This document shows positions 5,765 to 46,507 of a stretch of DNA of 64,000 bases, one piece after another. The notes beneath the pieces are model-generated. The model was not told the DNA's origin. It ran no database searches and worked only from the letters and a program-made list of their open reading frames with translations. The stretch spans positions 1-64,000 of IMG/VR virus record IMGVR_UViG_3300027754_000055; one strand, given 5' to 3'. Within the stretch, counting starts at the first letter, position 1. Each line of letters opens with the position of its first letter. A program made the position numbers and the translations under genes. The stretch comes from a virus.

Positions 5765-6988
5765 CTATCTAATCTTAGATTCTTCTAACAAAGAGCTATA
5801 TATTTCTTTCAATATATCAGCATTATTTAATTTTTGATCGATATCATCAATGTTTTTGCTATTAGTTGCCATTGCCCTTATTTTAGGAGCAATAAAATAT
5901 CGAAGCCCTCCGGTTCCACCGGAGCCAAATCTAGCCATAAGATATGGTTTATAATTCCCTAATTCTTCGCTAGGTAATTCAGAAATGAATATTTTACCAT
6001 CTCCACCAGGAAATAATTCCCAATATTCATCTGTTAAATTATTTTTTTTCAACATGGGTACTTCATTTGAAAACATGACGAAATCATAGTTTTTTTCTCC
6101 ATAGTCATGATAAAGAAAGCTTATGAATTCTTCTTCAATTTCTTTAGTCAAAAAATCTTTATATATTTGAGGTATTTTATCAGGATATATGCTGTCCTGA
6201 TACGATTTAACTTTATTTACAAAATCCTGAAATACGTCAGATAATTTCTTGTACTGTTCAGTTTTTATATAAAACGCTAATTTTTTTATAAAACCTTTAT
6301 ATCTTTCTGCTATACTTTTGCCTTCTTGATGTTTGTAAGAAAACGAACCAATTTCTTTGCCTTTATTATCAATTATTAAAAAGTCAGCCCCACCCTGTAC
6401 AAGATCATGTTTTTTTATTTGCGTTACGTTATAAAAAATTTTAAATTTTTCTTTTTCTACACTTGATCTAACGAGTATATTAATTGGTTTTTCAAATTTA
6501 CCTATTTCGGTATTTAAGCTTTTAAGAAAAAGTATTTCTTTCCTCGTTACATCACTTTCATCCACTACCAACCAATCAACTTTTTTGCCTATATCAAATT
6601 TTTTATCGTTTAATGGAATTATTCGTTTGGACTCGTCTTGATTAGCACCTAAGAATTTTGATAATATTTTTTGTTTATCTGCCAAGTCTTCATCATTAAT
6701 TTCTTTTAGTGTGTTTAAATTATAAGGCTCTTTTAAAACATGAATATTGAAATTTTGCGTGACCCTATTAACTTCTGCGAATATTTTTTCTGGAACGATT
6801 GCAATAAGCTTCTTGTTAGAAATTATTTCTTTCGCTTCCGTTTCTGATAAAGTATCATTGTTTTCCAATAGCCTATTGATGATATACTTTGGAACTCTGG
6901 TTGGGCTTACTCCATAAACTATTCTATAATCTCTAATTGTTGCCATATGATATCTAATTATCATGGCATATTCTTTGTTGTCTATCAA
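5765..6988 (-). CDS. Hypothetical protein, possible PD-(D/E)xK nuclease-like fold
   Basis: 407 aa; ADFLII...SFSYKH resembles a D...SxK restriction-like core; C-terminal ILKEIYSSLLEES tag. Confidence 0.45.
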   Translation of the reverse strand: MIDNKEYAMIIRYHMATIRDYRIVYGVSPTRVPKYIINRLLENNDTLSETEAKEIISNKKLIAIVPEKIFAEVNRVTQNFNIHVLKEPYNLNTLKEINDEDLADKQKILSKFLGANQDESKRIIPLNDKKFDIGKKVDWLVVDESDVTRKEILFLKSLNTEIGKFEKPINILVRSSVEKEKFKIFYNVTQIKKHDLVQGGADFLIIDNKGKEIGSFSYKHQEGKSIAERYKGFIKKLAFYIKTEQYKKLSDVFQDFVNKVKSYQDSIYPDKIPQIYKDFLTKEIEEEFISFLYHDYGEKNYDFVMFSNEVPMLKKNNLTDEYWELFPGGDGKIFISELPSEELGNYKPYLMARFGSGGTGGLRYFIAPKIRAMATNSKNIDDIDQKLNNADILKEIYSSLLEESKIR

Positions 6989-7067
6989 ATTTTACAAATA
7001 CAATCAATATTCATAGCAACTGACGTTATTTCAAACATTAATGGCGATATGTTAAATATTAAAGCAT

Positions 7068-7364
7068 ATGCAACAAAATATTATTGATAACGATAAGAAT
7101 ATAAAAATTCTTCATGGCGGCAAAGTTGTGGTTATATCTCCGCTGAATAACGATAAAATCATCATTCCATTCTTTTGCCCTACATGCGAATATCCAATGA
7201 AGCAAGCAGAAGATGCTGAAAGTTACAGAAACCATACTTGCTGCCATATGTGCGAACTAAATTGGGCCAGTAGCAACGAAACACCAGACAAAAGCAGCGA
7301 ACGATGGAAATTATATATGGAAAGAAGACACTTAGTATTTTTGCCCCAAATAAACTTTAAATGA
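7068..7364 (+). CDS. Zinc-finger protein
   Basis: CPTC...CCHMC. Confidence 0.7.
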   Translation: MQQNIIDNDKNIKILHGGKVVVISPLNNDKIIIPFFCPTCEYPMKQAEDAESYRNHTCCHMCELNWASSNETPDKSSERWKLYMERRHLVFLPQINFK

Positions 7365-7399
7365 ATTCAATACTTATCCAGCAAAAGGATTAAATTATT

Positions 7400-7849
7400 A
7401 TGCCTATTCAACAACGTGCTCGCTATAGAATTCTTTCAGGTCTGCTTGATACAAGTTTCGGTAAATCTTCTGAAAAAGCTTACCCAAACCATTTTGTCAA
7501 AATGACCATGCCGCTTGAAAATACTATTCAAATAAAAGCTCAAATAATTGTTCGCCTCGGTGGTACAAACATGTATCACGAAATGAGACGCAAATATAGA
7601 GAAGAAATGCTGGAAATAATCAAACAAAGACTTGAAAGAATTGCCGATGAATATAAACGTGCAATTGATACAAAATCAAACCTACTTGAACCAAAAGTAG
7701 AAAAACATGAAGAACCAGCACCAAAAACAGTAAAACTAAGCCTAGATTCTTCCACAATCCAAGAAGGCATTGAACATATTGGCATGTCAGCATATAACAC
7801 AGAGAAAACCTGCATTTTCAGATTGGAATGCTTGGCCAATATAAGCTGA
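7400..7849 (+). CDS. Hypothetical protein upstream of terminase
   Basis: 149-aa ORF with TACTTA (7371-7376) and AAGGA upstream. Confidence 0.7.
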   Translation: MPIQQRARYRILSGLLDTSFGKSSEKAYPNHFVKMTMPLENTIQIKAQIIVRLGGTNMYHEMRRKYREEMLEIIKQRLERIADEYKRAIDTKSNLLEPKVEKHEEPAPKTVKLSLDSSTIQEGIEHIGMSAYNTEKTCIFRLECLANIS

Positions 7850-7877
7850 GTTTTGAATAATTAAATTATCGAAAAAT

Positions 7878-10769
7878 ATGGCGTTAAATAAAAAAGAGCA
7901 AGTTGACGAAATAATGAAATGCGGTGAAGAACCAATGTATTTCATTAAAAAATACCTCTATATCCAGCACCCAACAAAAGGACGTTTGCCTTTTGAACTT
8001 TATAAATTTCAAGAGCAATGCATTGATGATTTTTTAAACTATCGATTTAATATAGTAGTAAAAGGTCGTCAGCTTGGTTTATCAACTACCACTTCAGCAT
8101 ATTGCTTGTGGATGGCATTGTTTCGTAGAGATGCCGAAATTTTGATCATGGCTACCAAACTAGAAGTTGGTAAAGCAATGATTCAAAAAATACGCACAGC
8201 ATTCAAAATGTTACCAGCTTGGATGCTCAATATGTTGGACCTCACAGAGCCTGAAGCAGAATCTGTAAAATATATCAAATTCAATAATGGCTCAAGAATA
8301 ACTGCAATCCCAACCTCTGCCGATGCGGGTCGCTCATCAGCGGTTACGCTTCTCGTGATAGACGAATGTGCTCATATTGAAAACTTAGAAGAGTTATGGC
8401 TTGGTTTAAAACCAACGCTTAGCACTGGCGGTCGAGCAATCATGTTCTCATCTCCAAAAGGTAAAAATTTCTTTTATCAATTATGGATGGGCGCAGATAC
8501 CAATGAATATGAAAAAGATAAAATTGGCTTACATTGTACTTCTGTAGGGAAAAATGGATTCCACGGAATAAAATTACCATGGACGGTGCACCCAGAGCGT
8601 GATGATAAATGGTTTGAGGAAGAATCAAGAGCTATGTCTTCCCAGGGAATAGCTCAGGAATTATTATGTGTTGGGCCACAGTCTCGTATTCAGACATTTG
8701 ATGGGTTTAAATTTGCCAGTGATATCTCCATTGGGGACATGGTACTTACTCATAAAGGAAGATTTAAACCAGTAATAAATGTAGGGTCTAGGCTAGTAGA
8801 CCAAGAAGAAAACGTGTATCAAGTCTCAGTGCCATGCAATAGAGAAGAAGACCTTTTGATTACAGGAAATCATCCTTTGTATGGTAAAAAATTTCATTGC
8901 ACTTCTACTGTATCGCCATGGAAAAAGATAATAGACGAAGGTATTAAATCTGATTTTTATTCTCTTGATGAGATTGATAAATTTCAGAAAACATATGCCG
9001 ATAGATTTTTTTCTTCACTTCAGCCAGCAAATTATATTAATAATATCATTGGAAAAATTACGGATAAAATCGATTTATGGTCCTTTGATGTTCAAAAGAA
9101 GAAAATGATGCCAGATGGTAAAATTAGCTACTGGAGGCAACGCTCCGAAACGATAAACCGAATGGTAGATGTTGATTTTGACCTTGGTAGGTATATTGGT
9201 TTGTGTGTAGCTGAAGGATGTGTTAATAAAAATTATTCAAAGGGTCGTGCATTAACAGAAAATCTACAGTTAGCTTTTCATACCAACGAACTAGATACTC
9301 TTGGAAAATTTATAACAGACTTCTATGATAAACTTGGTGTAAAATATTGTGTAAATATTAGATCATATAGTAAGTGTTTTACGGTCCATACCAGCAACAA
9401 ATATATTATTGAGCTTTATAGGAATTTTGTAAACGCAGGAGATGCAACAAAAAAATACCTGAAATTTGACACTTTTTTATCTACAAATATCGATTTCATT
9501 AAGGGTTATTTAGTTGGTCACTTTGATGGTGATGGCGATCATTTGGAGGCTGCTTCATCTAATAATTTTGGTAAAAAAATAAAGGTAGTAACACGATCTC
9601 CGAAGTTGCTTAGCCAAATTAAAATATTATTGGCGGCATTCGGCCATTATGGTAGAATAAATTATAAAACTGGATACTATGAAATAGATGGAGTTGACCT
9701 ATTACCATCTCCTACTATACTTGAGGCATTGCAGACAAATAAAACATCATTAGAGAAATCCGGTAGCCGTACAAAATTAATTAATGATGAAATCATTGGC
9801 AATATACAATACAAACGATTTGATAAGGAAAAATGCCCCATCGTTTACAATATAGAGGTTGAAGAAGACCATTCATATATTGTTAATGGATTGGTCGTTC
9901 ATAATTGTTCCTTCGAAAGTTCGGCGTTAACTTTCTTTTCTCAAGCAGATATTGACTATGTAAGAAACCTATCATATCCTCCAATTGGATATGCTGGTCC
10001 TAATGGCAAAGGCAATGACATGCATATCTGGAAGACTCCAATCCCTGAGCATAAATATGTTATTGCCGCCGATGTCGCTAGAGGAGATGCAGAAGATTAT
10101 TCCACTTTCCATATATTTGATACCAATGAAAGCGAAGTGGTCGCAGAATATATGGGTAAAATTGCACCAGATAGATTTGGTGAATTTTTGATTGAAATTG
10201 GTAAAAAATACAATGATGCACTGATCGTAAATGAAAAAAATACAGTAGGGATCGCCACAGCAATCAAGCTAAGAGACTCAGAATATAAAAACGTATACTA
10301 CGATCCAGATTTGGCAGAGAAGATGGTAGGCATGACGCCGGATGAGAAGAAGGATATTCTACCCGGTTTTACGATCACATCAAAAAACAGAGAGCCTATA
10401 CTTGAGAATCTAGAGCAAGTTATCCGCAATCATCAGATAAAGATTTATTCTCTTAGATTTGTTGAGCAAATGGAAACATTTATCTGGAATGGTAAGCGTG
10501 GGCAGGCATTGAAAAAACGCCATGATGATCTTATTTTGGCAATGGGTGTTGGTTTGCAGATTTTTACACCAAGTGCTGCCCAGCAAGGATATCTTGGGAT
10601 GATGGCTGCGAATCAAACTATGGCTAATTCTTTATTGGCTGGTATGAGCAGGGGCTATAAGGATATAGAAAATAAATTTCAAGGTAAAAAATTGCCTCAT
10701 GGCGTTAATAAAAATGCGGTGAAATTTGATTCAGAATTGAAAAAAGAGTTCTGGTGGATGTTTAGGTAA
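7878..10769 (+). CDS. terL: Terminase large subunit (T4 gp17-like) with intein
   Basis: YIQHPTKG, Walker A KGRQLGLST, Walker B LLVIDE, SSPKG; nuclease ADVARGD...DYS and HDDLILA. Confidence 0.95.
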   Translation: MALNKKEQVDEIMKCGEEPMYFIKKYLYIQHPTKGRLPFELYKFQEQCIDDFLNYRFNIVVKGRQLGLSTTTSAYCLWMALFRRDAEILIMATKLEVGKAMIQKIRTAFKMLPAWMLNMLDLTEPEAESVKYIKFNNGSRITAIPTSADAGRSSAVTLLVIDECAHIENLEELWLGLKPTLSTGGRAIMFSSPKGKNFFYQLWMGADTNEYEKDKIGLHCTSVGKNGFHGIKLPWTVHPERDDKWFEEESRAMSSQGIAQELLCVGPQSRIQTFDGFKFASDISIGDMVLTHKGRFKPVINVGSRLVDQEENVYQVSVPCNREEDLLITGNHPLYGKKFHCTSTVSPWKKIIDEGIKSDFYSLDEIDKFQKTYADRFFSSLQPANYINNIIGKITDKIDLWSFDVQKKKMMPDGKISYWRQRSETINRMVDVDFDLGRYIGLCVAEGCVNKNYSKGRALTENLQLAFHTNELDTLGKFITDFYDKLGVKYCVNIRSYSKCFTVHTSNKYIIELYRNFVNAGDATKKYLKFDTFLSTNIDFIKGYLVGHFDGDGDHLEAASSNNFGKKIKVVTRSPKLLSQIKILLAAFGHYGRINYKTGYYEIDGVDLLPSPTILEALQTNKTSLEKSGSRTKLINDEIIGNIQYKRFDKEKCPIVYNIEVEEDHSYIVNGLVVHNCSFESSALTFFSQADIDYVRNLSYPPIGYAGPNGKGNDMHIWKTPIPEHKYVIAADVARGDAEDYSTFHIFDTNESEVVAEYMGKIAPDRFGEFLIEIGKKYNDALIVNEKNTVGIATAIKLRDSEYKNVYYDPDLAEKMVGMTPDEKKDILPGFTITSKNREPILENLEQVIRNHQIKIYSLRFVEQMETFIWNGKRGQALKKRHDDLILAMGVGLQIFTPSAAQQGYLGMMAANQTMANSLLAGMSRGYKDIENKFQGKKLPHGVNKNAVKFDSELKKEFWWMFR
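8667..9905 (+). mobile_element. Intein (413 aa) with LAGLIDADG homing endonuclease in terL
   Basis: Begins CVGPQSRI after AQELL; block B ITGNHPL; IGLCVAEG and LVGHFDGDG; ends VYNIEVEEDHSYIVNGLVVHN followed by Cys. Confidence 0.93.
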
Positions 10770-13868: not shown

Positions 13869-13889
13869 ATTTTATGCTACTTATTATTC

Positions 13890-14564
13890 ATGAGCAAAAA
13901 GATAGATTTGAATGATTTCGGTAGGTTAGTAAAACCAAGGATATTAACAGAAGCATTTTTGCTTTGTAATTTTGATCATATCGATCTGCACAGTTGGTGG
14001 AAACAAGTTCTTGTTTTGGACATGTTTTCTAAGTCATATAAAAAAGATACAATTATCAGTAATTATGGTATCAAATTAGATGAATTATTTGAAGATTTAG
14101 ATATTGAAAACTATGTTGCAAAAATAAAATCTTTCATTGTTCTGCATGATGGAAAATATAAACTAATAAGCAACAAACAAGAAGCCGAAGTCCTATTCAC
14201 TTTGAGAAAAAAATTCTATATTCGTGCCGTAGGAATTGAAATATTTAAAAAATATAATCATGATACAAAAGAAACTTATGAACCTTGGGAATCAACTCAA
14301 AAAACAAATATAACTTGGTTTTATAAGCTGAAACATATTATTCCAATCGAAATAGTAGAACAGCATAATGAAATTGAATCTGGTGATTTGATTGTTTTTA
14401 GTAAAACTCAGGCTATTGTGACAAATATAAAAATATTAAAAAGAAAAAAATTTTACAGTACGTGCAGCTGGACGAATAAGAAAATAACAGTTCTGAGCGG
14501 AAACAAGGCTTATCAAGTCAGGCTCGATATCAATAGGCCGTTTGAAATAATAAAATCGAATTAA
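13890..14564 (+). CDS. Hypothetical protein (likely start 13890)
   Basis: The ORF-track start lies in the terminator; ATG 13890 follows TACTTA at 13878-13883. Confidence 0.65.
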   Translation: MSKKIDLNDFGRLVKPRILTEAFLLCNFDHIDLHSWWKQVLVLDMFSKSYKKDTIISNYGIKLDELFEDLDIENYVAKIKSFIVLHDGKYKLISNKQEAEVLFTLRKKFYIRAVGIEIFKKYNHDTKETYEPWESTQKTNITWFYKLKHIIPIEIVEQHNEIESGDLIVFSKTQAIVTNIKILKRKKFYSTCSWTNKKITVLSGNKAYQVRLDINRPFEIIKSN

Positions 14565-15356: not shown

Positions 15357-15448
15357 TATCATTCTAAATCTAACCATCACAATGTCACTAGTCAATATCC
15401 TTTATGAAGATAGTATGTTCGCAAACATACGAGATTGGTTGTTTCCAA

Positions 15449-15492
15449 GCGAACTACTCACAGGATGAACCCGTGGGTTTTTTGCTCATGTA
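15449..15492 (-). mobile_element. 44-bp minimal left-end/right-end fusion of the TnpB element (PATE-like)
   Basis: Minus strand TTTAT|TACATGAGCAAAAAACCCACGGGTTCATCCTGTGAGTAGTTCGC: left-end start, shared hairpin, right-end tail. Confidence 0.85.
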
Positions 15493-15613
15493 ATAAAATT
15501 TTAGATTTAAACCAATTGGAGAAAATTCTTGAAGAGTCGTCTGTGGCACTGATGATCAAAAAGTTATTGAAATACCAAAAATACCTACCGCATTCAAATA
15601 TAATAAAGTCAAC

Positions 15614-15919
15614 TTATCTATTCCATTTTCGCATTTCCGCTCGTTGAGCATCACTTCTTGCGGCGGGTGGCAATGTTGCGGTTGGTTTATTGGCGTCATC
15701 GACTTTTTTTAGAAGTTCTTCAACAACATCTTTATCTATTAATCCTTTAAGGTTTTTATATTTTTCTGGGTCTGTGGTTTTATACGGTTCAATTGCAGCT
15801 AGCATATTAGCTTGAATATTTTTATCAAAAGCAGAAAGTTGTATCATACCTTGCAAACCTATCTCCAACAAAATTTGTTTGATGATTGTTTTCAAATCTT
15901 TTTTAAAATTAGTTTTCAT
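15614..15919 (-). CDS. Tagged small protein (candidate virion cargo)
   Basis: MKTNFKKDLKTIIKQILLE; TATTTA 9 nt upstream. Confidence 0.7.
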   Translation of the reverse strand: MKTNFKKDLKTIIKQILLEIGLQGMIQLSAFDKNIQANMLAAIEPYKTTDPEKYKNLKGLIDKDVVEELLKKVDDANKPTATLPPAARSDAQRAEMRKWNR

Positions 15920-16167
15920 ATTTTTTTATAAATATAGGATTTTTTTATTTTTATGAGCAGTTCGCTCACGGGAAAAGCCTGCAAGCAATTGACAAGCTAC
16001 TGATCGGATGCAAAATTTCTGCACATGATCTAAGGCCAGATAATTGGGGAGTGAGAAATAGTGGAGAACTAGTAATTTTAGATTTTGGATTTGAACAAGG
16101 TGTTCTTGAAGAAAATTTTAAAATATAAAAACCATTACATTCCTCAACAATTGGCATATTTAAACAT

Positions 16168-17394
16168 ATGTCATTAAAACTTAGCAAATTATTATATAAA
16201 GAAAATTCTGGCGACTTCTCTGGCGCAGGTACGTTCCAAGGTGGCGCTTACGGCTTCGGCAATAGGCATCAGCTGGCAGATTCGGAGATCTGGCCGGGAT
16301 TGGTCGATCCAGAAGAAGACCTCCCTAATGAGCCTTCTATGTGGCCTGCTGTGCGTGCTCAAAAAGGATCGGATCGTGATGAAAATGATTCATTGGAATC
16401 ATCCGAAGTATATGATGATCGTCCTCACCTTTTGCCAGGACAAGACGAAGTTCGTGACCAACTGCTAGATCCAGAAAATGATATAGAACCTTCGTATTAT
16501 TATGTCACTGAGCGTGGACCATCAGATGGAAACTATAGAGATTTACAAGGGTTTCCCGCAATGAATACTTTATCTAATCCAATAGAGCATATACCAGATG
16601 ATGAAGACGAAGATAGAGATCCTGATGCGCCAGAAGAAGAAAGATATAATGTACCACAATTGCTTCCCGGTGGACGTGAAGCCGTGCGTGGAGAGCCTTT
16701 TGGTCATGGGCATTATGACAAACCAGAAGAGCTAAACATGAGCCTAAACTCAAAAGATACCAGCATGTATGATCCAATGGATGATGAAATTACAGATAAC
16801 AATCTGAAACTTACTCAAAAAAGAAATAAAACATTGAACCGCTGGAAAGAAACAACCCCCACAGACAGAGGCCAAACTAACCGTGATGTCGTGTTTAACC
16901 ATTTGGTGAATCCTGTGAATTGGATAAAAAAAGAATTCGGGCAAACAGACTATAAAAAAGAATTAGACGAAGAAGATGATGTACCAACACGTGCCGGATT
17001 TATGGGTACTGTGGCTCATCCAGTAAAACATGTCCCTGGATCAGTCGATATTTATAAAAAAGGTTCAGGCCCCGGCTACTACCGAAACGAATCAAAGGAA
17101 ATTAAAATGTCAAAATCCGATAAAGAATCAACCAAAAGAAAATTAGTGGATTATCTACCAGCAGAATTAGATAAAAAAATGCCTGAAAAACCATATGGAA
17201 CAGGCGGTTTTGCTTCTATTGTTAAGAAATTTGATCATGGCACAGAAGAACGTGATCTAAAAGAAATAGAACCACTTGAGCCAGAAGAAAATTATATCCC
17301 ATATGATAATGGCAAACCACAAAAATTTGATGTTATCATGCAAACTAAACTATTCGATAAATTAGCAAAATTAGCAAAAAAAGATAAAAAATAA
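16168..17394 (+). CDS. Acidic, Pro-rich, probably disordered protein (candidate head/core protein)
   Basis: 408 aa; MSLKLSKLLYKE; TATTTA 5 nt upstream. Confidence 0.75.
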   Translation: MSLKLSKLLYKENSGDFSGAGTFQGGAYGFGNRHQLADSEIWPGLVDPEEDLPNEPSMWPAVRAQKGSDRDENDSLESSEVYDDRPHLLPGQDEVRDQLLDPENDIEPSYYYVTERGPSDGNYRDLQGFPAMNTLSNPIEHIPDDEDEDRDPDAPEEERYNVPQLLPGGREAVRGEPFGHGHYDKPEELNMSLNSKDTSMYDPMDDEITDNNLKLTQKRNKTLNRWKETTPTDRGQTNRDVVFNHLVNPVNWIKKEFGQTDYKKELDEEDDVPTRAGFMGTVAHPVKHVPGSVDIYKKGSGPGYYRNESKEIKMSKSDKESTKRKLVDYLPAELDKKMPEKPYGTGGFASIVKKFDHGTEERDLKEIEPLEPEENYIPYDNGKPQKFDVIMQTKLFDKLAKLAKKDKK

Positions 17395-20841: not shown

Positions 20842-21648
20842 ATGGCTAAAATTATATTTTTGCATGATCCATCTATCCTTGATGACGGAGAATTGGAAGC
20901 TGTTAAAAATCATACCTCATGGGTGATTACAGAGTCAATATTGGATATCCAGGATGGCGATTTGGTAATTGCCCGCCATACGATGTGGCCTTGGCCTAAA
21001 CGTGTTCAGCGTGATGTAAAACGTCTTGGTGGAGTCCTATTAAATGGATTGCGTGAATATGTTTATGCAGATAGCTGTCCATCATGGTCATGGGATCTAC
21101 AGGAATTAACTCCTAAAACTTATACAGATTTCTCTACTTTACCAGAAAATACATCCTTTATTCTTAAAGGTTCCAAGGCAGACAAAAGCTGCTGGAAAAA
21201 GATGTTTGCTGAAAACAAGAGGGCAGCAATTGATTTAATGATTTCCATGAATGCGGATTCACGATTTGAGGGTCAAGATATTGTGGCCAGAGAATATGTA
21301 CCGCTTGAGAGGTTATCATGGGACGGTCAATCATGCCCTATTTCAACCGAATATCGTATTTTTGTTTTGGATGGCAAGGTATTATCTACTGGATTTTATT
21401 GGGTGATGGAAGATTGTGATGCGAAACCGACTTCTGCGGATCAAATCCCAAAAGATTTCTTGGAAGAAGCTATTATGCGTATTGGTGATCAAATTAGATT
21501 TTACACACTTGATGTAGCTAAAACGGCAGATGGATCATGGATTGTTATTGAGATATCAGACGGTCAGCGTGCCGGATTATCTAACAATGATCCCACTGTG
21601 CTTTACTCTAAAATGGCAGAGATATTAGAGTCTGCTGGAAACTCGTGA
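20842..21648 (+). CDS. ATP-grasp protein (R2K-clade-like); likely start 20842
   Basis: FILKG, VAREYVPL, EYRIFVLDG, FYTLDVAKTADGSWIVIEISDGQRAG. Confidence 0.8.
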   Translation: MAKIIFLHDPSILDDGELEAVKNHTSWVITESILDIQDGDLVIARHTMWPWPKRVQRDVKRLGGVLLNGLREYVYADSCPSWSWDLQELTPKTYTDFSTLPENTSFILKGSKADKSCWKKMFAENKRAAIDLMISMNADSRFEGQDIVAREYVPLERLSWDGQSCPISTEYRIFVLDGKVLSTGFYWVMEDCDAKPTSADQIPKDFLEEAIMRIGDQIRFYTLDVAKTADGSWIVIEISDGQRAGLSNNDPTVLYSKMAEILESAGNS

Positions 21649-23592
21649 TAGTTTTTGAATTATATTATTTAATATAATTGATTCTGTTATTACAACTTTT
21701 TCTAACTCCTTAATTGTTAATTTTGCTGCATTAGAAGTGATTTTATCAGGGCTAGATGATAACAAATTTAAAATTTCCAGAGGTGTATTAAGATTGCTTG
21801 CAACACCCACTAATACATCTTTATCGCTATCGTCTGATAATTTTTTTAAAATATCTGGCGAGGCTTTTTTGTTATAGGCTACATTAATTCTGACTTCTTC
21901 TTCTGGATGTTCTGAAAGTTCTAATAATGTCTGATATGGTGTTTTGCTATTTCTTGCAACACTCAGCAGCACATCGACAATATTATCTTTAGATAGTCTT
22001 GTTAACGTATTTGGATTAATTAGTTGACTACCGGCTGCTATTTTACGCATTTTCCATTCTTTACTCAGCGCTAATTTTTCCAGTGTATCAAGTGACAAAT
22101 TTTTATTATTTCGTGCTGCTTGAAAAACCATCGAGTGTTTGTCTATTAATAATTTATCCAATGTAATACTATCCGTGTTTGAATTACCTGCAACGGCGGC
22201 ACGCACAAAAGCGTTAGAGCTATTTGATAAAACGGCCAATACATCAGTTGGTGCATTTGGATGAGCAGCCAGTGTTGTTTGCATATCATCAATTCCGTGC
22301 TTGCTTATAATAATCCTTAAAGCTTCAGTGGGCGTATTATTATTAAAAAATAATTGAGTAGAAACAATTTCTCGTGGATCTCTGGCGAGTTCAATTAGAA
22401 TTTGGGACGATGTTTTTATATTGAGGGCTACTCGTGAGCGAACATTGTATTCATCGTCTGTTGAAAGTTGTTGTAGTGTTTTTGTAGATGTATTTTCATT
22501 TGCCGCCACTCGTTCACGTACATAACTATTTTTATTAGATGCTAGCAAAGATAAAACTTCTGGTGTTATTGTTTTAACTGATAATATATTTCGTAAAAAG
22601 TCTTCAAGAAGTTCTGGCTTACGGAAGCTATCCATCTTTTGTTTTAATTTTTCAGGATTTTGCGCCAATACTTCCCATTCTTTGGAAGCAGGATGCTTGC
22701 CAGATATCTGGTTTATCCGTTCTTTCATTTTCTCTAAGAAATTTATTGCTGTCGGCGTTCCTAATAGCTTAAAAAATTTATCTTCGGTCAAACTCTCATT
22801 GGCCGCATTTACAGTTTCTGTTCCAAATCCTCGATCAAAAGCAGGCTCACCATTTATAAACCCAACAGAAAGTTTGCTCCATGGATTTTTGATTGGGTCA
22901 GAATCTGTTTTCAAAACATAAAACAGTACAGTCCTACTGCTTGGCATACCGACATAATTAAGAAATAGATTCTGCTCCCCTTCACCTTTTCTTGCCGTGC
23001 ACCAAGTTGTGCCAGCACCTAAATCACAACTGGCCTCTGTTGTATGGGGCATTGCCAATTCCCAACCGTTTTCACGATAAAAAACATCTTTCTCCTCACT
23101 AGATGCTTCTTTAGTGATTGTTGTCTTTTTACTATCAATATCATAATGTAAATCAGACAATGATTTATATTCTTCTAAAGGCTTCAGCATGGAGGTATTT
23201 TTAATATATAATTTTAGTAACGGTAGATAGTCTTCTTGAATGGATCTCCATGATAGATTTGGTATTTCTTTAATCCGTGTAAGAAACCATTGTATTATAT
23301 GTTTTCCGCTGGTTGCTTTTATCCTAAATTCTTCAAGCATTTCGGCAGATAATACGCTAAATTTCAATTCGGAAAAAGAATACTGTGTCGAATCTAATAT
23401 CGTGAAATATGATTTATATTTTTCAAATTTTTTAAATATAGGCTCAGCTTCCTCTTTGGAAACTGGTGTTGGCTCTTTTTTCGCCTTGTTACGCAACCAC
23501 ACATCAACAGGGGCCTCTGTTAAAAATATTCTAGTTTTAATTATATCTTTAATAGATTTTTTTAATTGTTCCTGTATATTCGATTTTGTCAT
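21625..23592 (-). CDS. Tagged protein with PcfJ-like domain and leucine-rich-variant (HEAT-like) repeats
   Basis: PHTTEASCDLGAGTTWCTA; about 11 repeats of ~24 aa, consensus L..LS.D....VR..VA.N.NT; tags at both ends. Confidence 0.75.
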   Translation of the reverse strand: MTKSNIQEQLKKSIKDIIKTRIFLTEAPVDVWLRNKAKKEPTPVSKEEAEPIFKKFEKYKSYFTILDSTQYSFSELKFSVLSAEMLEEFRIKATSGKHIIQWFLTRIKEIPNLSWRSIQEDYLPLLKLYIKNTSMLKPLEEYKSLSDLHYDIDSKKTTITKEASSEEKDVFYRENGWELAMPHTTEASCDLGAGTTWCTARKGEGEQNLFLNYVGMPSSRTVLFYVLKTDSDPIKNPWSKLSVGFINGEPAFDRGFGTETVNAANESLTEDKFFKLLGTPTAINFLEKMKERINQISGKHPASKEWEVLAQNPEKLKQKMDSFRKPELLEDFLRNILSVKTITPEVLSLLASNKNSYVRERVAANENTSTKTLQQLSTDDEYNVRSRVALNIKTSSQILIELARDPREIVSTQLFFNNNTPTEALRIIISKHGIDDMQTTLAAHPNAPTDVLAVLSNSSNAFVRAAVAGNSNTDSITLDKLLIDKHSMVFQAARNNKNLSLDTLEKLALSKEWKMRKIAAGSQLINPNTLTRLSKDNIVDVLLSVARNSKTPYQTLLELSEHPEEEVRINVAYNKKASPDILKKLSDDSDKDVLVGVASNLNTPLEILNLLSSSPDKITSNAAKLTIKELEKVVITESIILNNIIQKLSRVSSRL

Positions 23593-29238: not shown

Positions 29239-29244
29239 TATATT

Positions 29245-29442
29245 ATGGGAATAACTGAAAAAACAAAAGATATTGGTTGGATTCAATGTAGCCAATGCGG
29301 TAATGGGTTTGAGGTTCACCGTTCAGAGGTTGAGGCTGGAGATTATGTAGATCGTCAAGTTTGTGATGAATGTGGAATCGGACCAATGCATATTGATTTT
29401 GATTACCCAGACGGGAGTGGGTGGGTAGCAGAAAAGCTTTGA
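29245..29442 (+). CDS. Zinc-ribbon protein
   Basis: CSQCG...CDECG. Confidence 0.65.
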   Translation: MGITEKTKDIGWIQCSQCGNGFEVHRSEVEAGDYVDRQVCDECGIGPMHIDFDYPDGSGWVAEKL

Positions 29443-29457
29443 ATTGTATTTATCGGT

Positions 29458-30195
29458 ATGATAAAAATATTCCCTATACTGTTCAATGAATCCGTCGAGG
29501 AGCCAATGCAAGTTATTGACAATGCTGGTTATAAAGACATAACAGGAGTTCGCCGCATTCCTGTTGCCAAGATTGTTGACCCAAGAACAAAAGAAGAAAA
29601 GGTTGCTGTTGGCAACGAAGAGATCGACAAAGCAAAAGCTCGCATTCCCGGCAAACCAACAATGACCGATGAAGAGATGGACAGCCTCTTCGATGGCTCA
29701 GAGTTGGTCGTGGAAGAAAAAGTTGACGGACACCCAATGATTATCGTCAAAGGTGGTTTTACCTTTTTCTGCGAATCCCTATCGATCAAACACAGCGTTG
29801 AATATGAGAACGTTCCATACTCCGTTGGTGGTTGGCCGGATATGACTGTTTGCTATGATGTGTTGGATGGAGAGTTTGAGCCTCCATATCAAAAAGGTCA
29901 AGGAACAGGCAAGTGGCTAAACAGAGAAGAAAAGGAAGCGGTGTGCGAAGAAGTGGGAGCGCCTGTTGTTCCTCTTGTTTGGAAGGGCATTGTTTCCCCA
30001 GAAGAGCTTCCAACATTGGCTGACCGTATATCTTCGTTTGGTTCCAAAATAGCCGAAGGCATTGTATTAAAGAACTATAGCTCCGGTGTGTTTGGTAAGT
30101 TCATCAACTTGGAGTTCCAGCAAAAGATATCCGATGAAGCTTTGCAGGGCGGCGTTCATCCAATGCGAGCAGGGATCAGAAACTTTCGCCGCTGA
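29458..30195 (+). CDS. Tagged ATP-dependent RNA ligase-like nucleotidyltransferase
   Basis: Motif I VEEKVDG, FCE, YDV, VVPLVWKG, motif IV AEGIVLKN, motif V GKFINLEF; N-terminal MIKIFPILFNES. Confidence 0.85.
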   Translation: MIKIFPILFNESVEEPMQVIDNAGYKDITGVRRIPVAKIVDPRTKEEKVAVGNEEIDKAKARIPGKPTMTDEEMDSLFDGSELVVEEKVDGHPMIIVKGGFTFFCESLSIKHSVEYENVPYSVGGWPDMTVCYDVLDGEFEPPYQKGQGTGKWLNREEKEAVCEEVGAPVVPLVWKGIVSPEELPTLADRISSFGSKIAEGIVLKNYSSGVFGKFINLEFQQKISDEALQGGVHPMRAGIRNFRR

Positions 30196-30238
30196 CATAT
30201 TGCTTGACTTTATCAATATTCTTTGATATTCTGAATCT

Positions 30239-30778
30239 ATGAGCAAGCGAACAAAGATTCTTCACAACGTTGGATTGGCTCAACAGCCAATCAATCACAA
30301 CATCACATCTACTGGTCCTCAAAGTACATTATATTTTGATCCAGATTCTGTCAAGCAAAAAGAAACTGCCGTACAGTGGGCAGATGTTATATGGACTTAT
30401 GGGCCTCCAAGCTGTTGGGTTCCAAAAGGATATTGGTATCTTATTGCTCCTCCAATATCTAACGGTTCAACAGGATATACACCTATTGTTCTTGCAAATA
30501 AACCAATGACGGGATTGATTCTTACGGATATCGATGTTCGCATGGAAGGCAGCAGAGCTTATAAAGTAATCAATCCAGCAGATAATAGTTTGTTTGATAT
30601 TCGTGAAGATCAGATGTTGCAAGCGATTATCAAATATGGCATTCAAGCTGGTGGATTGATTGGTGGTGAATGGGTTTGGGCCATGAATCACACACAAATC
30701 AAGTGTTATCTTGTTGATGGTAAAGAATATCTGGATATGCTAGCAGAACACAAGCTACCTACACACCCCGCAATCTGA
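30239..30778 (+). CDS. Hypothetical early protein
   Basis: TTGACT-N17-TATTCT (30204-30232) 6 nt upstream. Confidence 0.75.
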   Translation: MSKRTKILHNVGLAQQPINHNITSTGPQSTLYFDPDSVKQKETAVQWADVIWTYGPPSCWVPKGYWYLIAPPISNGSTGYTPIVLANKPMTGLILTDIDVRMEGSRAYKVINPADNSLFDIREDQMLQAIIKYGIQAGGLIGGEWVWAMNHTQIKCYLVDGKEYLDMLAEHKLPTHPAI

Positions 30779-30827: not shown

Positions 30828-31088
30828 ATGAAGATCGGTAGCTTGTATCAGTTCAAAAAGTATTTTTGGGTGCTTTATCCTTCAAAAGAAACAATTGTTC
30901 ACCCCAAAGAAATCAAGGTTTCTTATGTCACAGAAAAAAGTCTTTTTGTTCTATTGGAACAGGATAAATTATCCTGTAAGATTCTAACAGCCGATGGAAA
31001 CATTGGGTGGGTCGCCTATTCAGAATCAGAAGACGCTGAATGGTGCAAGGGTTGCATTGAGGAAATTAATCCCTGTAAAGAAGGCTAA
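30828..31088 (+). CDS. SH3-like paralogue family member
   Basis: MKIGSLYQF...FVLLE...CKILTADGNIGWV. Confidence 0.8.
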   Translation: MKIGSLYQFKKYFWVLYPSKETIVHPKEIKVSYVTEKSLFVLLEQDKLSCKILTADGNIGWVAYSESEDAEWCKGCIEEINPCKEG

Positions 31089-34374: not shown

Positions 34375-34665
34375 TTAAGTCGAAACTTTAGCTTTTTTTG
34401 TATTTGCTACAAATTGTTTGCGGCCACCTTTTGACTTTGTTTTCTTTTTCTTTGCGGTAGCTGCACGCTGTTTTTTGCTCAATGAATAAGCTTTGGCGGC
34501 AGGAAGACAACGATCTGGATTTGATTTATTCTTGCTTGTCCCACATTCACCAGCAACCTTACCAGAAGAGGTTACACGTTTCCATTTTTGCTTGAACCAT
34601 TTGCGTAAATCTTCTTCAATCATCTCTTTGATGATAGTTTTAATAGATTCTTCTAGTGATTCCAT
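34375..34665 (-). CDS. Tagged basic small protein (DUF5872-like, from memory)
   Basis: EESIKTIIKEMIEEDLRKWFKQKW...CGT...RCLP; Lys-rich. Confidence 0.7.
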   Translation of the reverse strand: MESLEESIKTIIKEMIEEDLRKWFKQKWKRVTSSGKVAGECGTSKNKSNPDRCLPAAKAYSLSKKQRAATAKKKKTKSKGGRKQFVANTKKAKVST

Positions 34666-34898
34666 AATTTCATGATTTCTTCTTTGATAATATCTTTGAG
34701 TTGATCATAAGATTCATTAGCTTTCTTCTTTTTTCTCCAGCCGCCACCTTTGCTTTTATACCATCTTGAAGCCCAAGCCATCTTATAAGCAGAATGTTTT
34801 GTAAATTTTTTACTTGCAGCAGCTTTTGCTCTAGACCACAAGGCAGGATTTGTTGGAGAGTTCTCGCCCTCTTCAAGATATTCTAGTTCGTTTTCCAT
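34653..34898 (-). CDS. Tagged basic small protein
   Basis: PTNPALWSRAK...SAY...WYKSKGGGWR; C-terminal NESYDQLKDIIKEEI; TAATTA 6 nt upstream. Confidence 0.75.
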   Translation of the reverse strand: MENELEYLEEGENSPTNPALWSRAKAAASKKFTKHSAYKMAWASRWYKSKGGGWRKKKKANESYDQLKDIIKEEIMKLWNH

Positions 34899-34997
34899 AA
34901 CACTTAATTAGTTTTATATAAAAAAATAATTGGATTCTAATTAATATGTGTACAAAAAGAAAATAAACTTGTTTAATATACGAAAGGAAGAATAATC

Positions 34998-35504: not shown

Positions 35505-35547
35505 CAAAACATAAAACCATCTACTTATGCTACATAAGGATGATGCC

Positions 35548-36033
35548 ATGAAACTTAGTGAAAAAAAATTATTAAAACAAATTATTAAAGAATCTATTTT
35601 GGTGAAAATCATTGGTGATGTGAACGAAGGCCATATAAGCAATATGGCAAGAGGCATTAAGGGTTTATTTAGTAAGTCAGAAGATGTACCAAGAAGCGTA
35701 CCAAAAGATGTACCAGAAAAAGTTAAAGATGTTCAAGATATTTCAAAAATTCCCGAAACAAGAAGTCTATGGCTACTTATCGGAAATGAAATAAAAGCAC
35801 AAAATGACGATTCAGAACGCACAGGATCAGTTTACCGTTGGATGGGTTTTTCTGATGAATATATAGAGAAATTTGGTAAAATATTTAAAAATCTTTTACC
35901 GCAACACATGGAACTAGTATTAAATTATTACAAATCTTTTAAAGATTCCGATTATGGGCCAGGATTTGACTCTATGATCGAAAAATTTCAAGAAATATAT
36001 GAGATCAGGTCAGCATCTAAAGGTAGATATTGA
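35548..36033 (+). CDS. Tagged hypothetical protein (likely start 35548)
   Basis: MKLSEKKLLKQIIKESIL; TACTTA at 35522 and AAGGA RBS. Confidence 0.7.
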   Translation: MKLSEKKLLKQIIKESILVKIIGDVNEGHISNMARGIKGLFSKSEDVPRSVPKDVPEKVKDVQDISKIPETRSLWLLIGNEIKAQNDDSERTGSVYRWMGFSDEYIEKFGKIFKNLLPQHMELVLNYYKSFKDSDYGPGFDSMIEKFQEIYEIRSASKGRY

Positions 36034-36753: not shown

Positions 36754-37050
36754 ATGAAAAAAGTATATGTTTTATTGGAATGGCTTGAAGTTGATGTTTG
36801 TGGAGTACATAGCGTCTATGCAAGTAAAGAACTACTTGTAAAAGCGTTACTTGAAACAAAGAATAGTTCAGTTTACAGCAATGCAATGGCTTATTGGAAA
36901 AAATGTATTTGGGCCAATGGAACAACGGTTGACAAATCCAGATATGATAATTTCGAATCATTCCTGATAGATTATATTGAAAAAGTAATTAGCAAAAACC
37001 CACAGTGTCTGTTTGACTGTGTAGGCGAAGCAGAGGTGATCTGTGAGTGA
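36754..37050 (+). CDS. Hypothetical protein
   Basis: MKKVYVLLE...VHSVYASKE; resembles the ORF at 33521. Confidence 0.65.
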   Translation: MKKVYVLLEWLEVDVCGVHSVYASKELLVKALLETKNSSVYSNAMAYWKKCIWANGTTVDKSRYDNFESFLIDYIEKVISKNPQCLFDCVGEAEVICE

Positions 37051-37309
37051 GTACGAAAACCTAGAAATTGGAGGATTATACCATTATACGGTCGGAAGGC
37101 GCATTATTTTTTATGGGCCGAAAGGTAGTCTTTTAATCTCTAACAAGCAAGACGAACTAATTTCAGCAAACGAACCATTTGTTCTACTGGAAATCGGAAA
37201 GATGCACCTAAACACCTTTAGATGCAAGATATTATCGGCAAAAGGTATTGTCGGTTATATAGATACAAGATCAGAGTGTATTCTGAAGATCCCTGGTGAA
37301 AATCAATGA
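37043..37309 (+). CDS. SH3-like paralogue family member
   Basis: LEIGGLYHY...FVLLE...CKILSAKGIVGYI. Confidence 0.75.
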   Translation: MSEYENLEIGGLYHYTVGRRIIFYGPKGSLLISNKQDELISANEPFVLLEIGKMHLNTFRCKILSAKGIVGYIDTRSECILKIPGENQ

Positions 37310-39737: not shown

Positions 39738-39742
39738 TTGGC

Positions 39743-43257: not shown

Positions 43258-43925
43258 TAACTAAGCACATGTATAGTGGATGCAATAAAAAAATTACAGC
43301 AAGAGAGATGACGGTCATTGGTCAGTATAGAGAAATATTCAAACAACAATCCTTGCCAATGCAAAAGCAATTTATTTCTCTTTGTGGGCTATGCTGTGAT
43401 GTAGACAAAGGAAATATTTTACTAAAGGACTCAGAATTAGACCATGTTCTTAAATCTCGTTTATTAGAATCACCATCGCAATATCATGGAATCGATGCCA
43501 ATCAAGACACGATAAGTGCGAATAAATTAATTAGCGATTTTGTCGGCTCAGCAAAGCAGCCAAATTGGCATTGTAGATATTTCAAACTTGCAATTGATAG
43601 AATCGCAAGAGAAGAGTGGTTCAATCCAGGGATTATCAATTATGATTGCACGGTAATGCCAGAAAAAGCAATGGGCGATCTCAAACAAATCATTAATCTA
43701 ACCAAAAATAAAAATGACATCCTTGTTGTTTGTAATTTCGTCACAAGAGCAAGACATAAAACTTGCTCGCCAGAAGAATTATTTGAAACCATTAAAACAT
43801 CTGGCCTTTTGGATTTATTAAATAGAGATCAATGGGTTTTGCACGAAGTTATTTATCAATATAATGGAACAGGAAAATCATCGAATACAACAATGTCCAC
43901 GATAGTATTCTATAAAAAACAATAA
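43254..43925 (+). CDS. Putative Rossmann-fold methyltransferase-like protein
   Basis: ATGA overlap with helicase; FISLCG, QYHGID and GIINYD are spaced like motifs I, II and IV. Confidence 0.4.
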   Translation: MITKHMYSGCNKKITAREMTVIGQYREIFKQQSLPMQKQFISLCGLCCDVDKGNILLKDSELDHVLKSRLLESPSQYHGIDANQDTISANKLISDFVGSAKQPNWHCRYFKLAIDRIAREEWFNPGIINYDCTVMPEKAMGDLKQIINLTKNKNDILVVCNFVTRARHKTCSPEELFETIKTSGLLDLLNRDQWVLHEVIYQYNGTGKSSNTTMSTIVFYKKQ

Positions 43926-44000
43926 TTAATACGCTAAATTTCTGATGATTTTATTTTTAATATACTTGACTGGCCGCAATAAAAATGATATCATATCAGA

Positions 44001-44291
44001 ATGATATCAACTGAACTTAAAATTGGCAAATTATACGTGCTACCATTCAAATATTCAATATTCGATATCCAAAATGAACAGCGATACACTGGACATACCA
44101 CACGATATAAAACATATCTCACTGAAGGTACGCCAGTACTTATTCTGAATTTACAAAATATAGCCAGCTATATTAATATATCATTAACAAAATACTTAAT
44201 ATACCGCATTCTGTGCCCAGATGGCAATATAGTCTATATCGAAGTAACAGACAATGCAATCAAGGGTTTCTGGAAAGAAGTTAAAATATAA
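44001..44291 (+). CDS. SH3-like paralogue family member
   Basis: LKIGKLYVL...YRILCPDGNIVYI; TTGACT-N17-TATCAT (43966-43994). Confidence 0.75.
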   Translation: MISTELKIGKLYVLPFKYSIFDIQNEQRYTGHTTRYKTYLTEGTPVLILNLQNIASYINISLTKYLIYRILCPDGNIVYIEVTDNAIKGFWKEVKI

Positions 44292-44575
44292 TGGTTTTAC
44301 TTAAACCAGGGAAATTATATGTTAATAATTTCCTGAAGTACAACACAGATCCTGCATTTAGGAAACTTGGCTTTAATGTTTTTGTCGATGAAAATAATTC
44401 TAAATCTTTTGGCATTAGATCAGATGAGATAATTATGATAATTGAAATGGTTAGGCAAGAGATCAATAGAAAAATAAAATTTACAAAATATAAAATCTTA
44501 ACAAAAGATAAGGTTGGTTTTATCAATATCTATGAAGGATTAGAAAAAGATTGGCAGGAAGTATCCCTTGGCTAA
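44291..44575 (+). CDS. SH3-like paralogue family member
   Basis: LKPGKLYV...MIIE...YKILTKDKVGFI. Confidence 0.75.
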   Translation: MVLLKPGKLYVNNFLKYNTDPAFRKLGFNVFVDENNSKSFGIRSDEIIMIIEMVRQEINRKIKFTKYKILTKDKVGFINIYEGLEKDWQEVSLG

Positions 44576-44867
44576 TTTGTTAAAACCGGGTAAATTTTAT
44601 AAAAATATTGCCAAAATACGTGGGGGTTTTCTTGTCCATAAAAAACACCCAGATTTAAATAAAAAATTTACTTTAGATCAATTGGATCAATATACCACTA
44701 TATTCGATGGTGATCTTGTTTTAATTGTTGAAAATTTAGGAGAGAAAATTTGTACCCCAAGCAAAAACAAATATATCACCTATAAAATATTAACAAAAGA
44801 TTGTGTTGGCTATATTTTTGTATATAATAACGCTTCAAGAAATTGGGTTGAAGTAACGTCATGTTGA
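44568..44867 (+). CDS. SH3-like paralogue family member
   Basis: LKPGKFYK...LIVE...YKILTKDCVGYI. Confidence 0.75.
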   Translation: MANLLKPGKFYKNIAKIRGGFLVHKKHPDLNKKFTLDQLDQYTTIFDGDLVLIVENLGEKICTPSKNKYITYKILTKDCVGYIFVYNNASRNWVEVTSC

Positions 44868-45175
44868 ATCTTAAACCAGGAAAATTATATAAGATATTAT
44901 CTGATCAGAACATAGCAATTTTTAGATATTCAGATGGAAATGTAATAGATATTCTTAAACCAGATAGTAATACTATGTTTTTATATCTGGGAAAATTACC
45001 GTCAGATGTTTTTGATGAAAGAAATAATTTTACAATCAAAAATAATGTTGATTTTATTCGTCATAAATTATTATTGCCTGATGGAACATTGTCATATATC
45101 AATATAGGACGCATAGAAAATCAAAAAGAAATTTACTATGATCCTAATATTAAATGGATGGAAATATTTCCATAA
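44861..45175 (+). CDS. SH3-like paralogue family member
   Basis: LKPGKLYKI...LYLG...HKLLLPDGTLSYI. Confidence 0.75.
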   Translation: MLNLKPGKLYKILSDQNIAIFRYSDGNVIDILKPDSNTMFLYLGKLPSDVFDERNNFTIKNNVDFIRHKLLLPDGTLSYINIGRIENQKEIYYDPNIKWMEIFP

Positions 45176-45183
45176 TTTCAGTA

Positions 45184-45657
45184 TTAATCAATAACCGGAA
45201 AAACTTTGCTTGAATCCCAAATAACCACTTCTCTTAACACGCCATTAAAATATTGAAAAATAGCATCATAGCCTTGCTTCGCAGCAGCACTACTTATTTC
45301 TTTACCAACATATCCTTTTAGTTCTTCTATTTTTTCTACTTTGTTTTGCGCTTTTTCTTCTGGCATTCCTAATTGCACTAATGCCATAACACACGGATGC
45401 TCGTATCTATTTTTACCCATATGGATTTCTAAAGGGTTTTTAATATCCAAGTAAGCTTCTGTAATTTTACCGCCAGATTGGGTAGCGTATTGCTCTGCAA
45501 CTTCTCTGATTGGAGTAAAGTAAGCACCAGATCCTAAAGCTCCCCTTCCAGTTGTTTTAATTGGCGTTTTACCATCCCAGTTTCCACCGTGATATACAGG
45601 ACCAAATTTACTGGTTTTGTCATTGATATTTTCAAAAAGAATAGATAATAATTTCAT
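45184..45657 (-). CDS. Tagged ADP-ribosyltransferase-like protein
   Basis: MKLLSILFEN tag; VYHGG...LGSGAYFT...AEQYA...YLDIKNPL...GYDAI...EVVIWD. Confidence 0.75.
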   Translation of the reverse strand: MKLLSILFENINDKTSKFGPVYHGGNWDGKTPIKTTGRGALGSGAYFTPIREVAEQYATQSGGKITEAYLDIKNPLEIHMGKNRYEHPCVMALVQLGMPEEKAQNKVEKIEELKGYVGKEISSAAAKQGYDAIFQYFNGVLREVVIWDSSKVFPVID

Positions 45658-45749
45658 GATAGCTATAACTAGGTTATTTTTATGATTTACAAATTTTCAA
45701 CATTGTGATATAGTGTTCTATATCTTCTGATGTCAGTAAAAAGGAAATT

Positions 45750-45959
45750 ATGTTCAAAGTAGTAGAAACAAATAATGGAAAAATTAAAATTCTTCTAGAA
45801 AAAGAAGGGAGCTATTCTGAGATTGCAGAACTGCAAAACAGTGAGCATGGGCTATCTGCCGCAGAAGCTTTAATTTTTGATTTACGGAGATGGATTAATA
45901 AAAACGACATAGAGATAGATAAGGGAATGATTTATCATTCCTTGGAACAAGGATGGTAA
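45750..45959 (+). CDS. Hypothetical early protein
   Basis: TTTACA-N17-TATAGT (45686-45714) and AAGGA RBS. Confidence 0.65.
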   Translation: MFKVVETNNGKIKILLEKEGSYSEIAELQNSEHGLSAAEALIFDLRRWINKNDIEIDKGMIYHSLEQGW

Positions 45960-45961
45960 AA

Positions 45962-46507
45962 TCAAACCATTTTTGAAACTGGTGTTTTGCTCCAAAAACG
46001 GCAAGACCAATATTTTGGCGTTGTGCGATCTTTAGCTTGGCTACATTTATGTCTTGCACGGAATGATTTACGACGTTTTGGATCTTGACGCTTGATACGC
46101 ATGTTTGGATCACCAAAATTTACTTTTTTGATGTTTCCTGTTTTGGGATCTTTAACAAACACTTTGTATTTTTTTACATCGCCCTTGGAAGGTTTTCCAA
46201 CGGACACTTCTTTACCTTTATATTTTGCTTCTTGTAAAATACTAACATGCTCATTCATGTAAGCTACAAGACATCCCTCACAAACAGCTTCCCCTGTTTC
46301 ATCAAGGCTGGCTCCAAGCTCTAGAATTTCTGTTTCTTCATTTTCAGGCTCATCTGATCCAAATATTAAATTTTTACCATGAAATTTTTTCTTTGGTTCA
46401 CCGTGAATACTTTTTTCATGCTCATGATCATGTTTTTCACTTGAATATTCTAATTCATGAATGGATTCAAGAATTGCTAGAATCAAATTTTCTTTTGAGT
46501 TTTTCAT
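45962..46507 (-). CDS. Tagged protein with basic C-terminal domain
   Basis: Acidic N-half; after LQE comes AKYKGKEV...KKVNFGDPNM...RRKSFRARHKC...YWSC, a basic domain I recall from other large phages. Confidence 0.75.
   Translation of the reverse strand: MKNSKENLILAILESIHELEYSSEKHDHEHEKSIHGEPKKKFHGKNLIFGSDEPENEETEILELGASLDETGEAVCEGCLVAYMNEHVSILQEAKYKGKEVSVGKPSKGDVKKYKVFVKDPKTGNIKKVNFGDPNMRIKRQDPKRRKSFRARHKCSQAKDRTTPKYWSCRFWSKTPVSKMV

Follow-up and report, generated by a model that had tools for sequence, protein, structure and literature searches.

Short terminal peptides resembling T4 capsid-targeting propeptides on dispersed, unrelated genes of an uncultured freshwater jumbo phage

Proteins that phages inject act before phage gene expression, and anti-defence and host-takeover functions abound among them, but they are usually identified solely through virion proteomics of cultured phages. 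Here we analyse a stretch of 64,000 nucleotides (nt) of an uncultured freshwater jumbo phage (IMG/VR record IMGVR_UViG_3300027754_000055, positions 1 to 64,000, referred to as the window; 35% guanine plus cytosine, GC), in which unrelated proteins carry short hydrophobic or amphipathic peptides at their ends. Taken together with related genomes, these peptides probably represent a propeptide system for capsid targeting of the T4 type in an expanded and dispersed form that includes C-terminal propeptides.

In phage T4, propeptides of 10–19 residues direct proteins to the scaffolding core (PMC9026906, PMC3012670, PMC5694885). In the capsid-targeting sequence (CTS) of the internal protein IPIII residues 4 and 7 serve targeting and residues 8 and 10 processing, a CTS-type peptide is sufficient for targeting, and Alt is processed at its C-terminus as well (PMC9026906). 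The internal proteins of T-even phages are diverse anti-restriction proteins of which the CTS is the sole common part (PMC9026906, PMC3012670, PMC5694885). As read from the T4 genome, Alt starts with MELITELFDE, IPII and IPIII with MKTYQEFIAE, IPI with MKTFKEF...TITE, gp24 with MAKINELLRE, gp22 with MLKEQLIAE and gp21 with MNEPQLLIE, and gp67 contains IDLIKEEKIAIARNFLIE. In the jumbo phages phiKZ, 201phi2-1 and SPN3US a gp21-related protease cleaves behind Glu, and many of the internal or ejected head proteins bear N-terminal propeptides with a presumed role in prohead targeting (PMC5694885, PMC10052503), the sites reading A/S/G-x-E and the propeptides being mostly longer than 100 residues (PMC5694885). 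In phage P1 some 30 N-terminal residues of DarB, a cargo that counters host defence, suffice as a signal for entry into the capsid (PMC9024508); DarB is a single large cargo added stepwise with Dar partners, and no L/I-x-E leader common to many genes is described. Finally, polyvalent proteins, in which many effector domains are fused and of which the ART-PolyVal domain is typical, were predicted to be injected with the DNA early in infection (Iyer et al., 2017; PMC5512222).

What sets the tagged proteins of the window apart? A first, sequence-only reading of this DNA had listed terminal peptides of a type A and of a type B, and every one of them was found where it had been placed. The type B core [LIVM]K.IIK has six matches in coding frames and none elsewhere in a six-frame translation of the window, as compared with 0.29 on average and 3 at most after shuffling residues within proteins. 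All six lie within 20 residues of a protein terminus, four at the N-terminus and two at the C-terminus, a zone that holds only 18% of residues. The type A pattern [IL]L[FYI].?E, which was defined post hoc, has 10 matches, of which five fall within the first 16 residues (binomial P = 3.5e-4). Neither distribution thus looks random. BLASTP finds no pairwise similarity between the tagged proteins, in agreement with the claim that they are unrelated, and the leaders of 9–26 amino acids (aa) therefore sit on mutually dissimilar proteins.

The peptides had also been said to go together with an upstream TANTTA motif, a co-occurrence named for checking beforehand. Within 40 nt upstream of the start, TANTTA is present at 10 of 12 tagged genes versus 11 of 78 other genes (Fisher test, 3e-6), and when its 5' end is required to lie 11–15 nt before the ATG the counts become 8 of 12 versus 0 of 78 (6e-9). 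The gap between TANTTA and ATG is usually 5–9 nt, and this short spacing suggests that mRNAs starting from the motif are probably leaderless or almost so. The 11 untagged genes with TANTTA include that of the large terminase (TerL), the gene upstream of it (7400–7849), five tail genes and tnpB, suggesting that the motif marks a class of virion genes. An unbiased scan for open reading frames (ORFs) that start with ATG and have TANTTA 9–16 nt upstream recovers nine of the earlier-listed genes and adds one candidate at 13890–14564. The companion claim that the neighbouring genes are sigma70-driven was not borne out, as matches to the consensus number 96 versus 85 ± 10 in shuffled sequences, i.e. 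not above chance.

Orthologues show how the leader relates to the protein behind it. The ADP-ribosyltransferase (ART) of the ART-PolyVal family at 45184–45657 (− strand; Pfam PF18760, 49.7 bits) begins with MKLLSILFE and has TAGTTA at 45666–45671. Its 35 homologues (48–89% identity) share the N-terminus M-x-x-L-x-x-[ILF]-L-[FL]-E with an invariant Glu9, which is followed by a hypervariable linker, differing in length as well as sequence, and then by the domain (GPVYHGG). In the AlphaFold2 model of the window protein residues 1–14 have a pLDDT (predicted local distance difference test) below 50 and the domain is modelled confidently, which places the leader outside the predicted fold. The RNA-ligase-like protein at 29458–30195 (+ strand; Pfam PF09414; TATTTA at 29447–29452) starts with MIKIFPILFNE; an orthologue of 76% identity has a different leader of 10 residues, MKTFLEWLKE, and in another of 70% identity the leader is absent and the protein starts directly at the domain. 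The 655-aa LRV/HEAT-repeat protein at 21625–23592 (− strand; Pfam LRV; TATTTA at 23598–23603) has an amphipathic leader of 26 aa that ends FLTE|APVD, and its orthologues bear a short or a long leader before an invariant E-APID.

The most extensive series comes from a 407-aa protein at 23823–25046 (− strand; TAATTA at 25053–25058), whose N-terminal leader of 17 aa reads ..KLNSLLIE|SKQ and which ends in a C-terminal helix of the LK.IIK type after LQE. Among its 120 homologues the domain begins at an invariant Glu (E-SKQ..NLGFPEVIA) and the leader, of 2–27 aa, is either short and type A-like or a long amphipathic helix of the type B kind. Counting the Glu as P1, where it is invariant, P3 is occupied by Leu 91 times and by Ile 8 times (99/102), P4 is hydrophobic in 98/102 and P2 is free. 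A C-terminal type B helix is found in a subset of the family, where x-[TS]-E-[SAG] (LQE|N in the window protein) regularly stands before it, so that these helices look like C-terminal propeptides with an x-E cleavage site of their own. A pairing of short N-terminal leaders with the C-terminal helix is not significant (p = 0.35 on raw counts, which near-identical sequences and shared ancestry confound). A search of PDB sequences and Foldseek gave no match for the protein; for residues 177–291 VIA-align finds GNAT folds alone, with Z up to 7, a weak score.

Leaders are thus swapped, varied in length or absent among orthologues of four unrelated families, which bears out the proposal of a modular tag. 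Since orthologues in the unrelated ART, 407-aa and LRV families bear a leader of either type at the equivalent position, types A and B are interchangeable variants of one detachable N-terminal module ending in hydrophobic-L/I-x-E; the two types of the sequence-only reading are both present and become length variants of a single leader class. In length, pattern and terminal motif the leaders fit the T4 gp21 rule and resemble the T4 CTSs listed above, supporting the parallel with an N-terminal targeting sequence cut after Glu.

A prohead protease is found in relatives of the phage. Two of these, G001 (390 kb) and G003 (305 kb, with terminal repeats), count as complete, and G003 has the primase, SbcCD, TerL (66%) and the complete tail module in common with the window. 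Peptidase_S77, the gp21-type protease, scores above the Pfam cut-off in G001, G002, G003 and G008. In G003 the order is portal, 290-aa ORF, protease, 192-aa ORF, 170-aa ORF, 675-aa ORF and major capsid protein, which is T4-like. The protease itself starts MSNKKYLLRE, the 192-aa protein ..FVNIVKQALVQLIAE ahead of a Q/G-rich tail, the 675-aa protein ..LFKEALIE ahead of a P/A/S-rich region and the major capsid protein ..FTLAQLAE, so that protease, capsid and scaffold-like proteins of the relatives bear peptides akin to the leaders of the window. In G003 and G001 the ART gene has both leader and TANTTA, the latter 11 nt and 15 nt before the ATG, respectively. G004 and G008 are fragments of more distant phages, both with an ART and the latter with the S77 protease; at least 12 genes of G004 and at least 8 of G008 start with M(T/N)FK.F..L.LE or MT.NFD.F..., each with TAAATA or TAAGTA in front, some 5 nt from the ATG. 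The association between leader and promoter in G004 is 12/30 versus 4/62 controls (p = 1.7e-4). Across five genomes leaders share 2.68 identities within and 1.74 between genomes (permutation p = 0.0002; some of the within-genome pairs may be paralogues), indicating that the flavour of the leader is genome-specific across different cargo proteins, as would be expected if leaders co-evolve with a common receptor.

How could such a system work? The motif, its conservation and modularity, the association with the promoter and the protease in relatives can be read directly from the genomes, and from them we infer docking, cleavage, packaging, injection and a role in host takeover. Each cargo gene would be expressed from its own TANTTA promoter and, as the motif also precedes the terminase and tail genes, the cargo protein would be produced during prohead assembly. 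The hydrophobic or amphipathic leader of 9–26 residues may dock the cargo on the scaffolding core of the prohead, whereupon the gp21-type (Peptidase S77) prohead protease would cut after the Glu of hydrophobic-L/I-x-E; the mature enzyme would remain in the head and be ejected with the DNA. The C-terminal helices would act as C-terminal propeptides, each after its own x-E site. Candidate cargo includes the ADP-ribosyltransferase, the RNA-ligase-like, the GNAT-like and the LRV-repeat proteins.

The resemblance to T4 CTS cargo extends to a short N-terminal peptide on unrelated proteins with an M-(K/E) start and a hydrophobic-L/I-x-E end, an ADP-ribosyltransferase among the cargo candidates, a putative promoter motif that also precedes virion genes and a gp21-type protease in the lineage; moreover, the C-terminal processing of T4 Alt parallels the C-terminal propeptides proposed here (PMC3012670, PMC9026906). 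By analogy, the window ART is the functional counterpart of T4 Alt from another ART clade, since it belongs to ART-PolyVal and not to the Alt family. Unlike in T4, at least 12 putative cargo genes are found in 64 kb, dispersed singly, often antisense and each with a near-leaderless promoter, long amphipathic-helix leaders (15–27 aa) and C-terminal helices occur, and the phages are uncultured freshwater jumbo phages. New with respect to the T4 CTS would thus be the distant jumbo-phage lineage, the many dispersed cargo genes, the two leader lengths, the probable C-terminal propeptides and the dedicated near-leaderless promoter. With phiKZ, 201phi2-1 and SPN3US the phage has in common that it is a jumbo phage whose lineage encodes a gp21-related protease, but the prevalence of Leu or Ile at P3 (99/102) and leaders of 2–27 aa follow the T4 pattern rather than the phiKZ-type one. 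The ART-PolyVal domain is shared with the polyvalent proteins, and giant polyvalent homologues of the window ART were retrieved by search; unlike these, however, the window ART is a single domain of 157 aa, and each effector is separate with its own leader and promoter. P1 DarB would offer a parallel in its N-terminal packaging signal and in a cargo that acts against host defence, and differs as a single large cargo for which no leader common to many genes is described.

Several observations weigh against a T4-type targeting system. The motif patterns were set after the data had been seen, and the late-promoter role of TANTTA is an inference. With a rule-based definition the association between leader and promoter reaches only a marginal p = 0.048 in G003 and lacks significance in G008 (p = 0.16), and a loose N-terminal pattern combined with naive gene starts gives no promoter association in G003 (p = 0.34). 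Neither a head module nor its protease was found in the window, where the head-module proteins of G003 have no match. In the 407-aa and LRV families conserved residues (SKQ and APID) directly follow the Glu, and the 407-aa protein is predicted by AlphaFold2 (pLDDT 93) with one continuous helix through the Glu site, so that in these two families the Glu could belong to the domain and serve it. Finally, cleavage is predicted from the sequence pattern, which leaves room for a reading in which the leaders are never cut.

In such a reading, which we consider unlikely, the leaders would be uncleaved docking or oligomerisation helices for another late complex or site, be it a membrane, a compartment for replication or assembly, or a common partner, and the proteins would go unpackaged. 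The peptides are amphipathic or hydrophobic helices and occur at either protein end, like membrane-targeting and encapsulation peptides. The peptides for microcompartment encapsulation and for loading of encapsulin cargo are short amphipathic N- or C-terminal helices that are attached through variable linkers and bring unrelated enzymes into a shell of protein; the analogy implies no homology, those shells being cellular organelles and their peptides not being cleaved after Glu. Docking helices would, however, leave unexplained the invariant Glu, the Leu or Ile at P3 and the free P2, the likeness to T4 propeptides, and the like peptides on protease, capsid and scaffold-like proteins of the relatives together with the co-occurrence of S77. 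Rather improbable, in our judgement, is that the leaders are pro-peptides cut by a phage or host protease to time or activate toxic enzymes late, with no part in packaging. The L/I-x-E site and the protease in relatives would fit, as would the presence of an ART, a potentially toxic enzyme, among the cargo, but a disordered leader of 9 residues, set off from the ART domain by a variable linker, would hardly inhibit it, a genome-specific flavour on many proteins suggests a common receptor beyond a mere cleavage site, and a T4 peptide of the like kind is sufficient for targeting (PMC9026906). That the peptides are functionless and alike through AT-rich codon usage, 5' constraints of leaderless mRNAs and chance is very improbable, for although the genome has 35% GC, TANTTA at 5–9 nt from the ATG could constrain the 5' coding sequence and the patterns are post hoc, the shuffle and six-frame controls speak against chance, the motif is found at C-termini too, the leaders are conserved as protein in relatives at 43–45% GC and the Glu is invariant in 35–103 diverse orthologues.

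If the T4-type reading and its signature hold, jumbo-phage genomes from metagenomes could be read directly for their cargo, the CTS principle of T4 would be extended to a distant lineage, long helical leaders and C-terminal propeptides, and the natural leader variants would be on offer for the engineering of protein-delivery phages. It could be imagined, with somewhat more doubt than belief, that such a cargo code is widespread in phages with a gp21-type protease and consists of a late promoter and a leader, at the N- or the C-terminus, that ends in L/I-x-E or follows it and whose flavour co-evolves with the scaffold. Polyvalent effectors would then be unbundled into many small, independently swappable injected enzymes, and the full injected arsenal of uncultured phages would be predictable from their genomes alone.

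The remaining tagged genes of the window are less well characterized. Two have no assigned function and no relatives in a scan of viral contigs, with nothing usable from the ESM Atlas: a 238-aa protein at 25933–26649 (− strand; TACTTA at 26655–26660) with the leader MRIFDILFE, which matches no family in Pfam or PHROG and exact pieces of which occur in one metatranscriptome run, and a 408-aa protein at 16168–17394 (+ strand; TATTTA at 16157–16162) with the leader MSLKLSKLLYKE, whose homologue in G003 starts MKPFSFFELIAE with TANTTA 11 nt upstream. A 101-aa protein at 15614–15919 (− strand; TATTTA at 15929–15934) has the leader MKTNFKKDLKTIIKQILLE, and a 181-aa protein at 45962–46507 (− strand; TACTTA at 46532–46537), which belongs to PHROG 7595 with no function assigned, the leader MKNSKENLILAILE. 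In the 168-aa protein at 35527–36033 (+ strand) TACTTA abuts the ATG at 35527, with an alternative start at 35548, and the N-terminal ..KKLLKQIIKE|S is kept in 10 close homologues. The candidate added by the scan and absent from the earlier list, at 13890–14564 (+ strand; TANTTA at 13878–13883), reads MSKKIDLNDFGRLVKPRILTE|A.

Three loci are broken or doubtful. The peptide MSLVNILYE at 15382 is present as the first reading had it, but its gene, as then listed, is a 28-aa fragment: the small gene at 15382–15647 (+ strand), which lacks TANTTA upstream, is split by a 44-bp scar derived from IS200/IS605 at 15449–15492, and removal of the 44 bp in silico joins two ORFs into a single frame of 73 aa. 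DUF5872 is encoded by two overlapping ORFs at 34375–34898 (− strand; TAATTA at 34905–34910), of which 34653–34898 ends ..LKDIIKEEI.. and 34375–34665 begins ..SIKTIIKEMIEE; the Pfam match is to the N-terminal half alone (34653–34898), and DUF5872 was not found in five relatives. At the break each ORF carries a copy of the LK.IIKE helix, at the C-terminus of one and the N-terminus of the other, resembling a duplicated junction. The C-terminal case formerly placed at 5765–6988 is a weak candidate; the likelier gene start is 6946 (5765–6946, − strand; TANTTA 14 nt before this ATG), and the C-terminal ..ILKEIYSSLLEE.. does not match the core motif. Concerning domain labels, Pfam confirms RNA ligase and ART, and also finds LRV/HEAT repeats, a GNAT-like core receives weak support in 23823–25046 (Z 7), and the kinase-, nuclease- and PcfJ-like assignments were not confirmed. 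Apart from the three confirmed domains and the half DUF5872, no tagged protein was placed in a domain family.

The window further encodes a primase, an SbcCD-like nuclease, TerL, TnpB and a tail module with proteins of 1801, 1104 and 1119 aa. No deposited phage was matched by megablast of positions 14000–36000 or by tblastn with the 1801-aa protein. One metagenome scan past the end of the window gave a single contig of 4.9 kb, extending about 3.5 kb beyond it, without head genes. Metatranscriptome contigs from two runs contain pieces of four tagged genes at low depth; they show presence, but do not tell RNA from carried-over DNA or reveal transcript starts. Positions 21000–30500 or their near kin occur, in addition to the probable source sample, in metagenomes from freshwater, lakes and rivers that belong to at least 17 studies.

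Some further features were noted in passing. TerL (7878–10769) comprises 963 aa versus 600 aa in G003, and its residues 261–341 match a ribonucleotide-reductase stretch in PHROG, from which an intein in this protein appears probable. All-against-all BLASTP also revealed a family of small SH3-like paralogues between 11207 and 45175 (e.g. 27430–27726, 30828–31088, 37043–37309 and 44001–45175), none of which has the leader. In G004 at least 12 tandem paralogues of about 150 aa (43875–46363, 58972–61534 and 64179–64577; loci L040–L041) start with MKETIAQFLKV.DFPF and end with ..IELTLE.IADKLGL.V.NIRIKD, with identical sequence upstream of each. Just beyond the end of the window, locus L051 (2024–4689, about 64.7–67.4 kb in window numbering) contains an ORF of 112 aa with ..NSLKTMIKEAILE.. 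near its start and a RecA/UvsX-like gene of 756 aa that is broken by an intein of the LAGLIDADG type.

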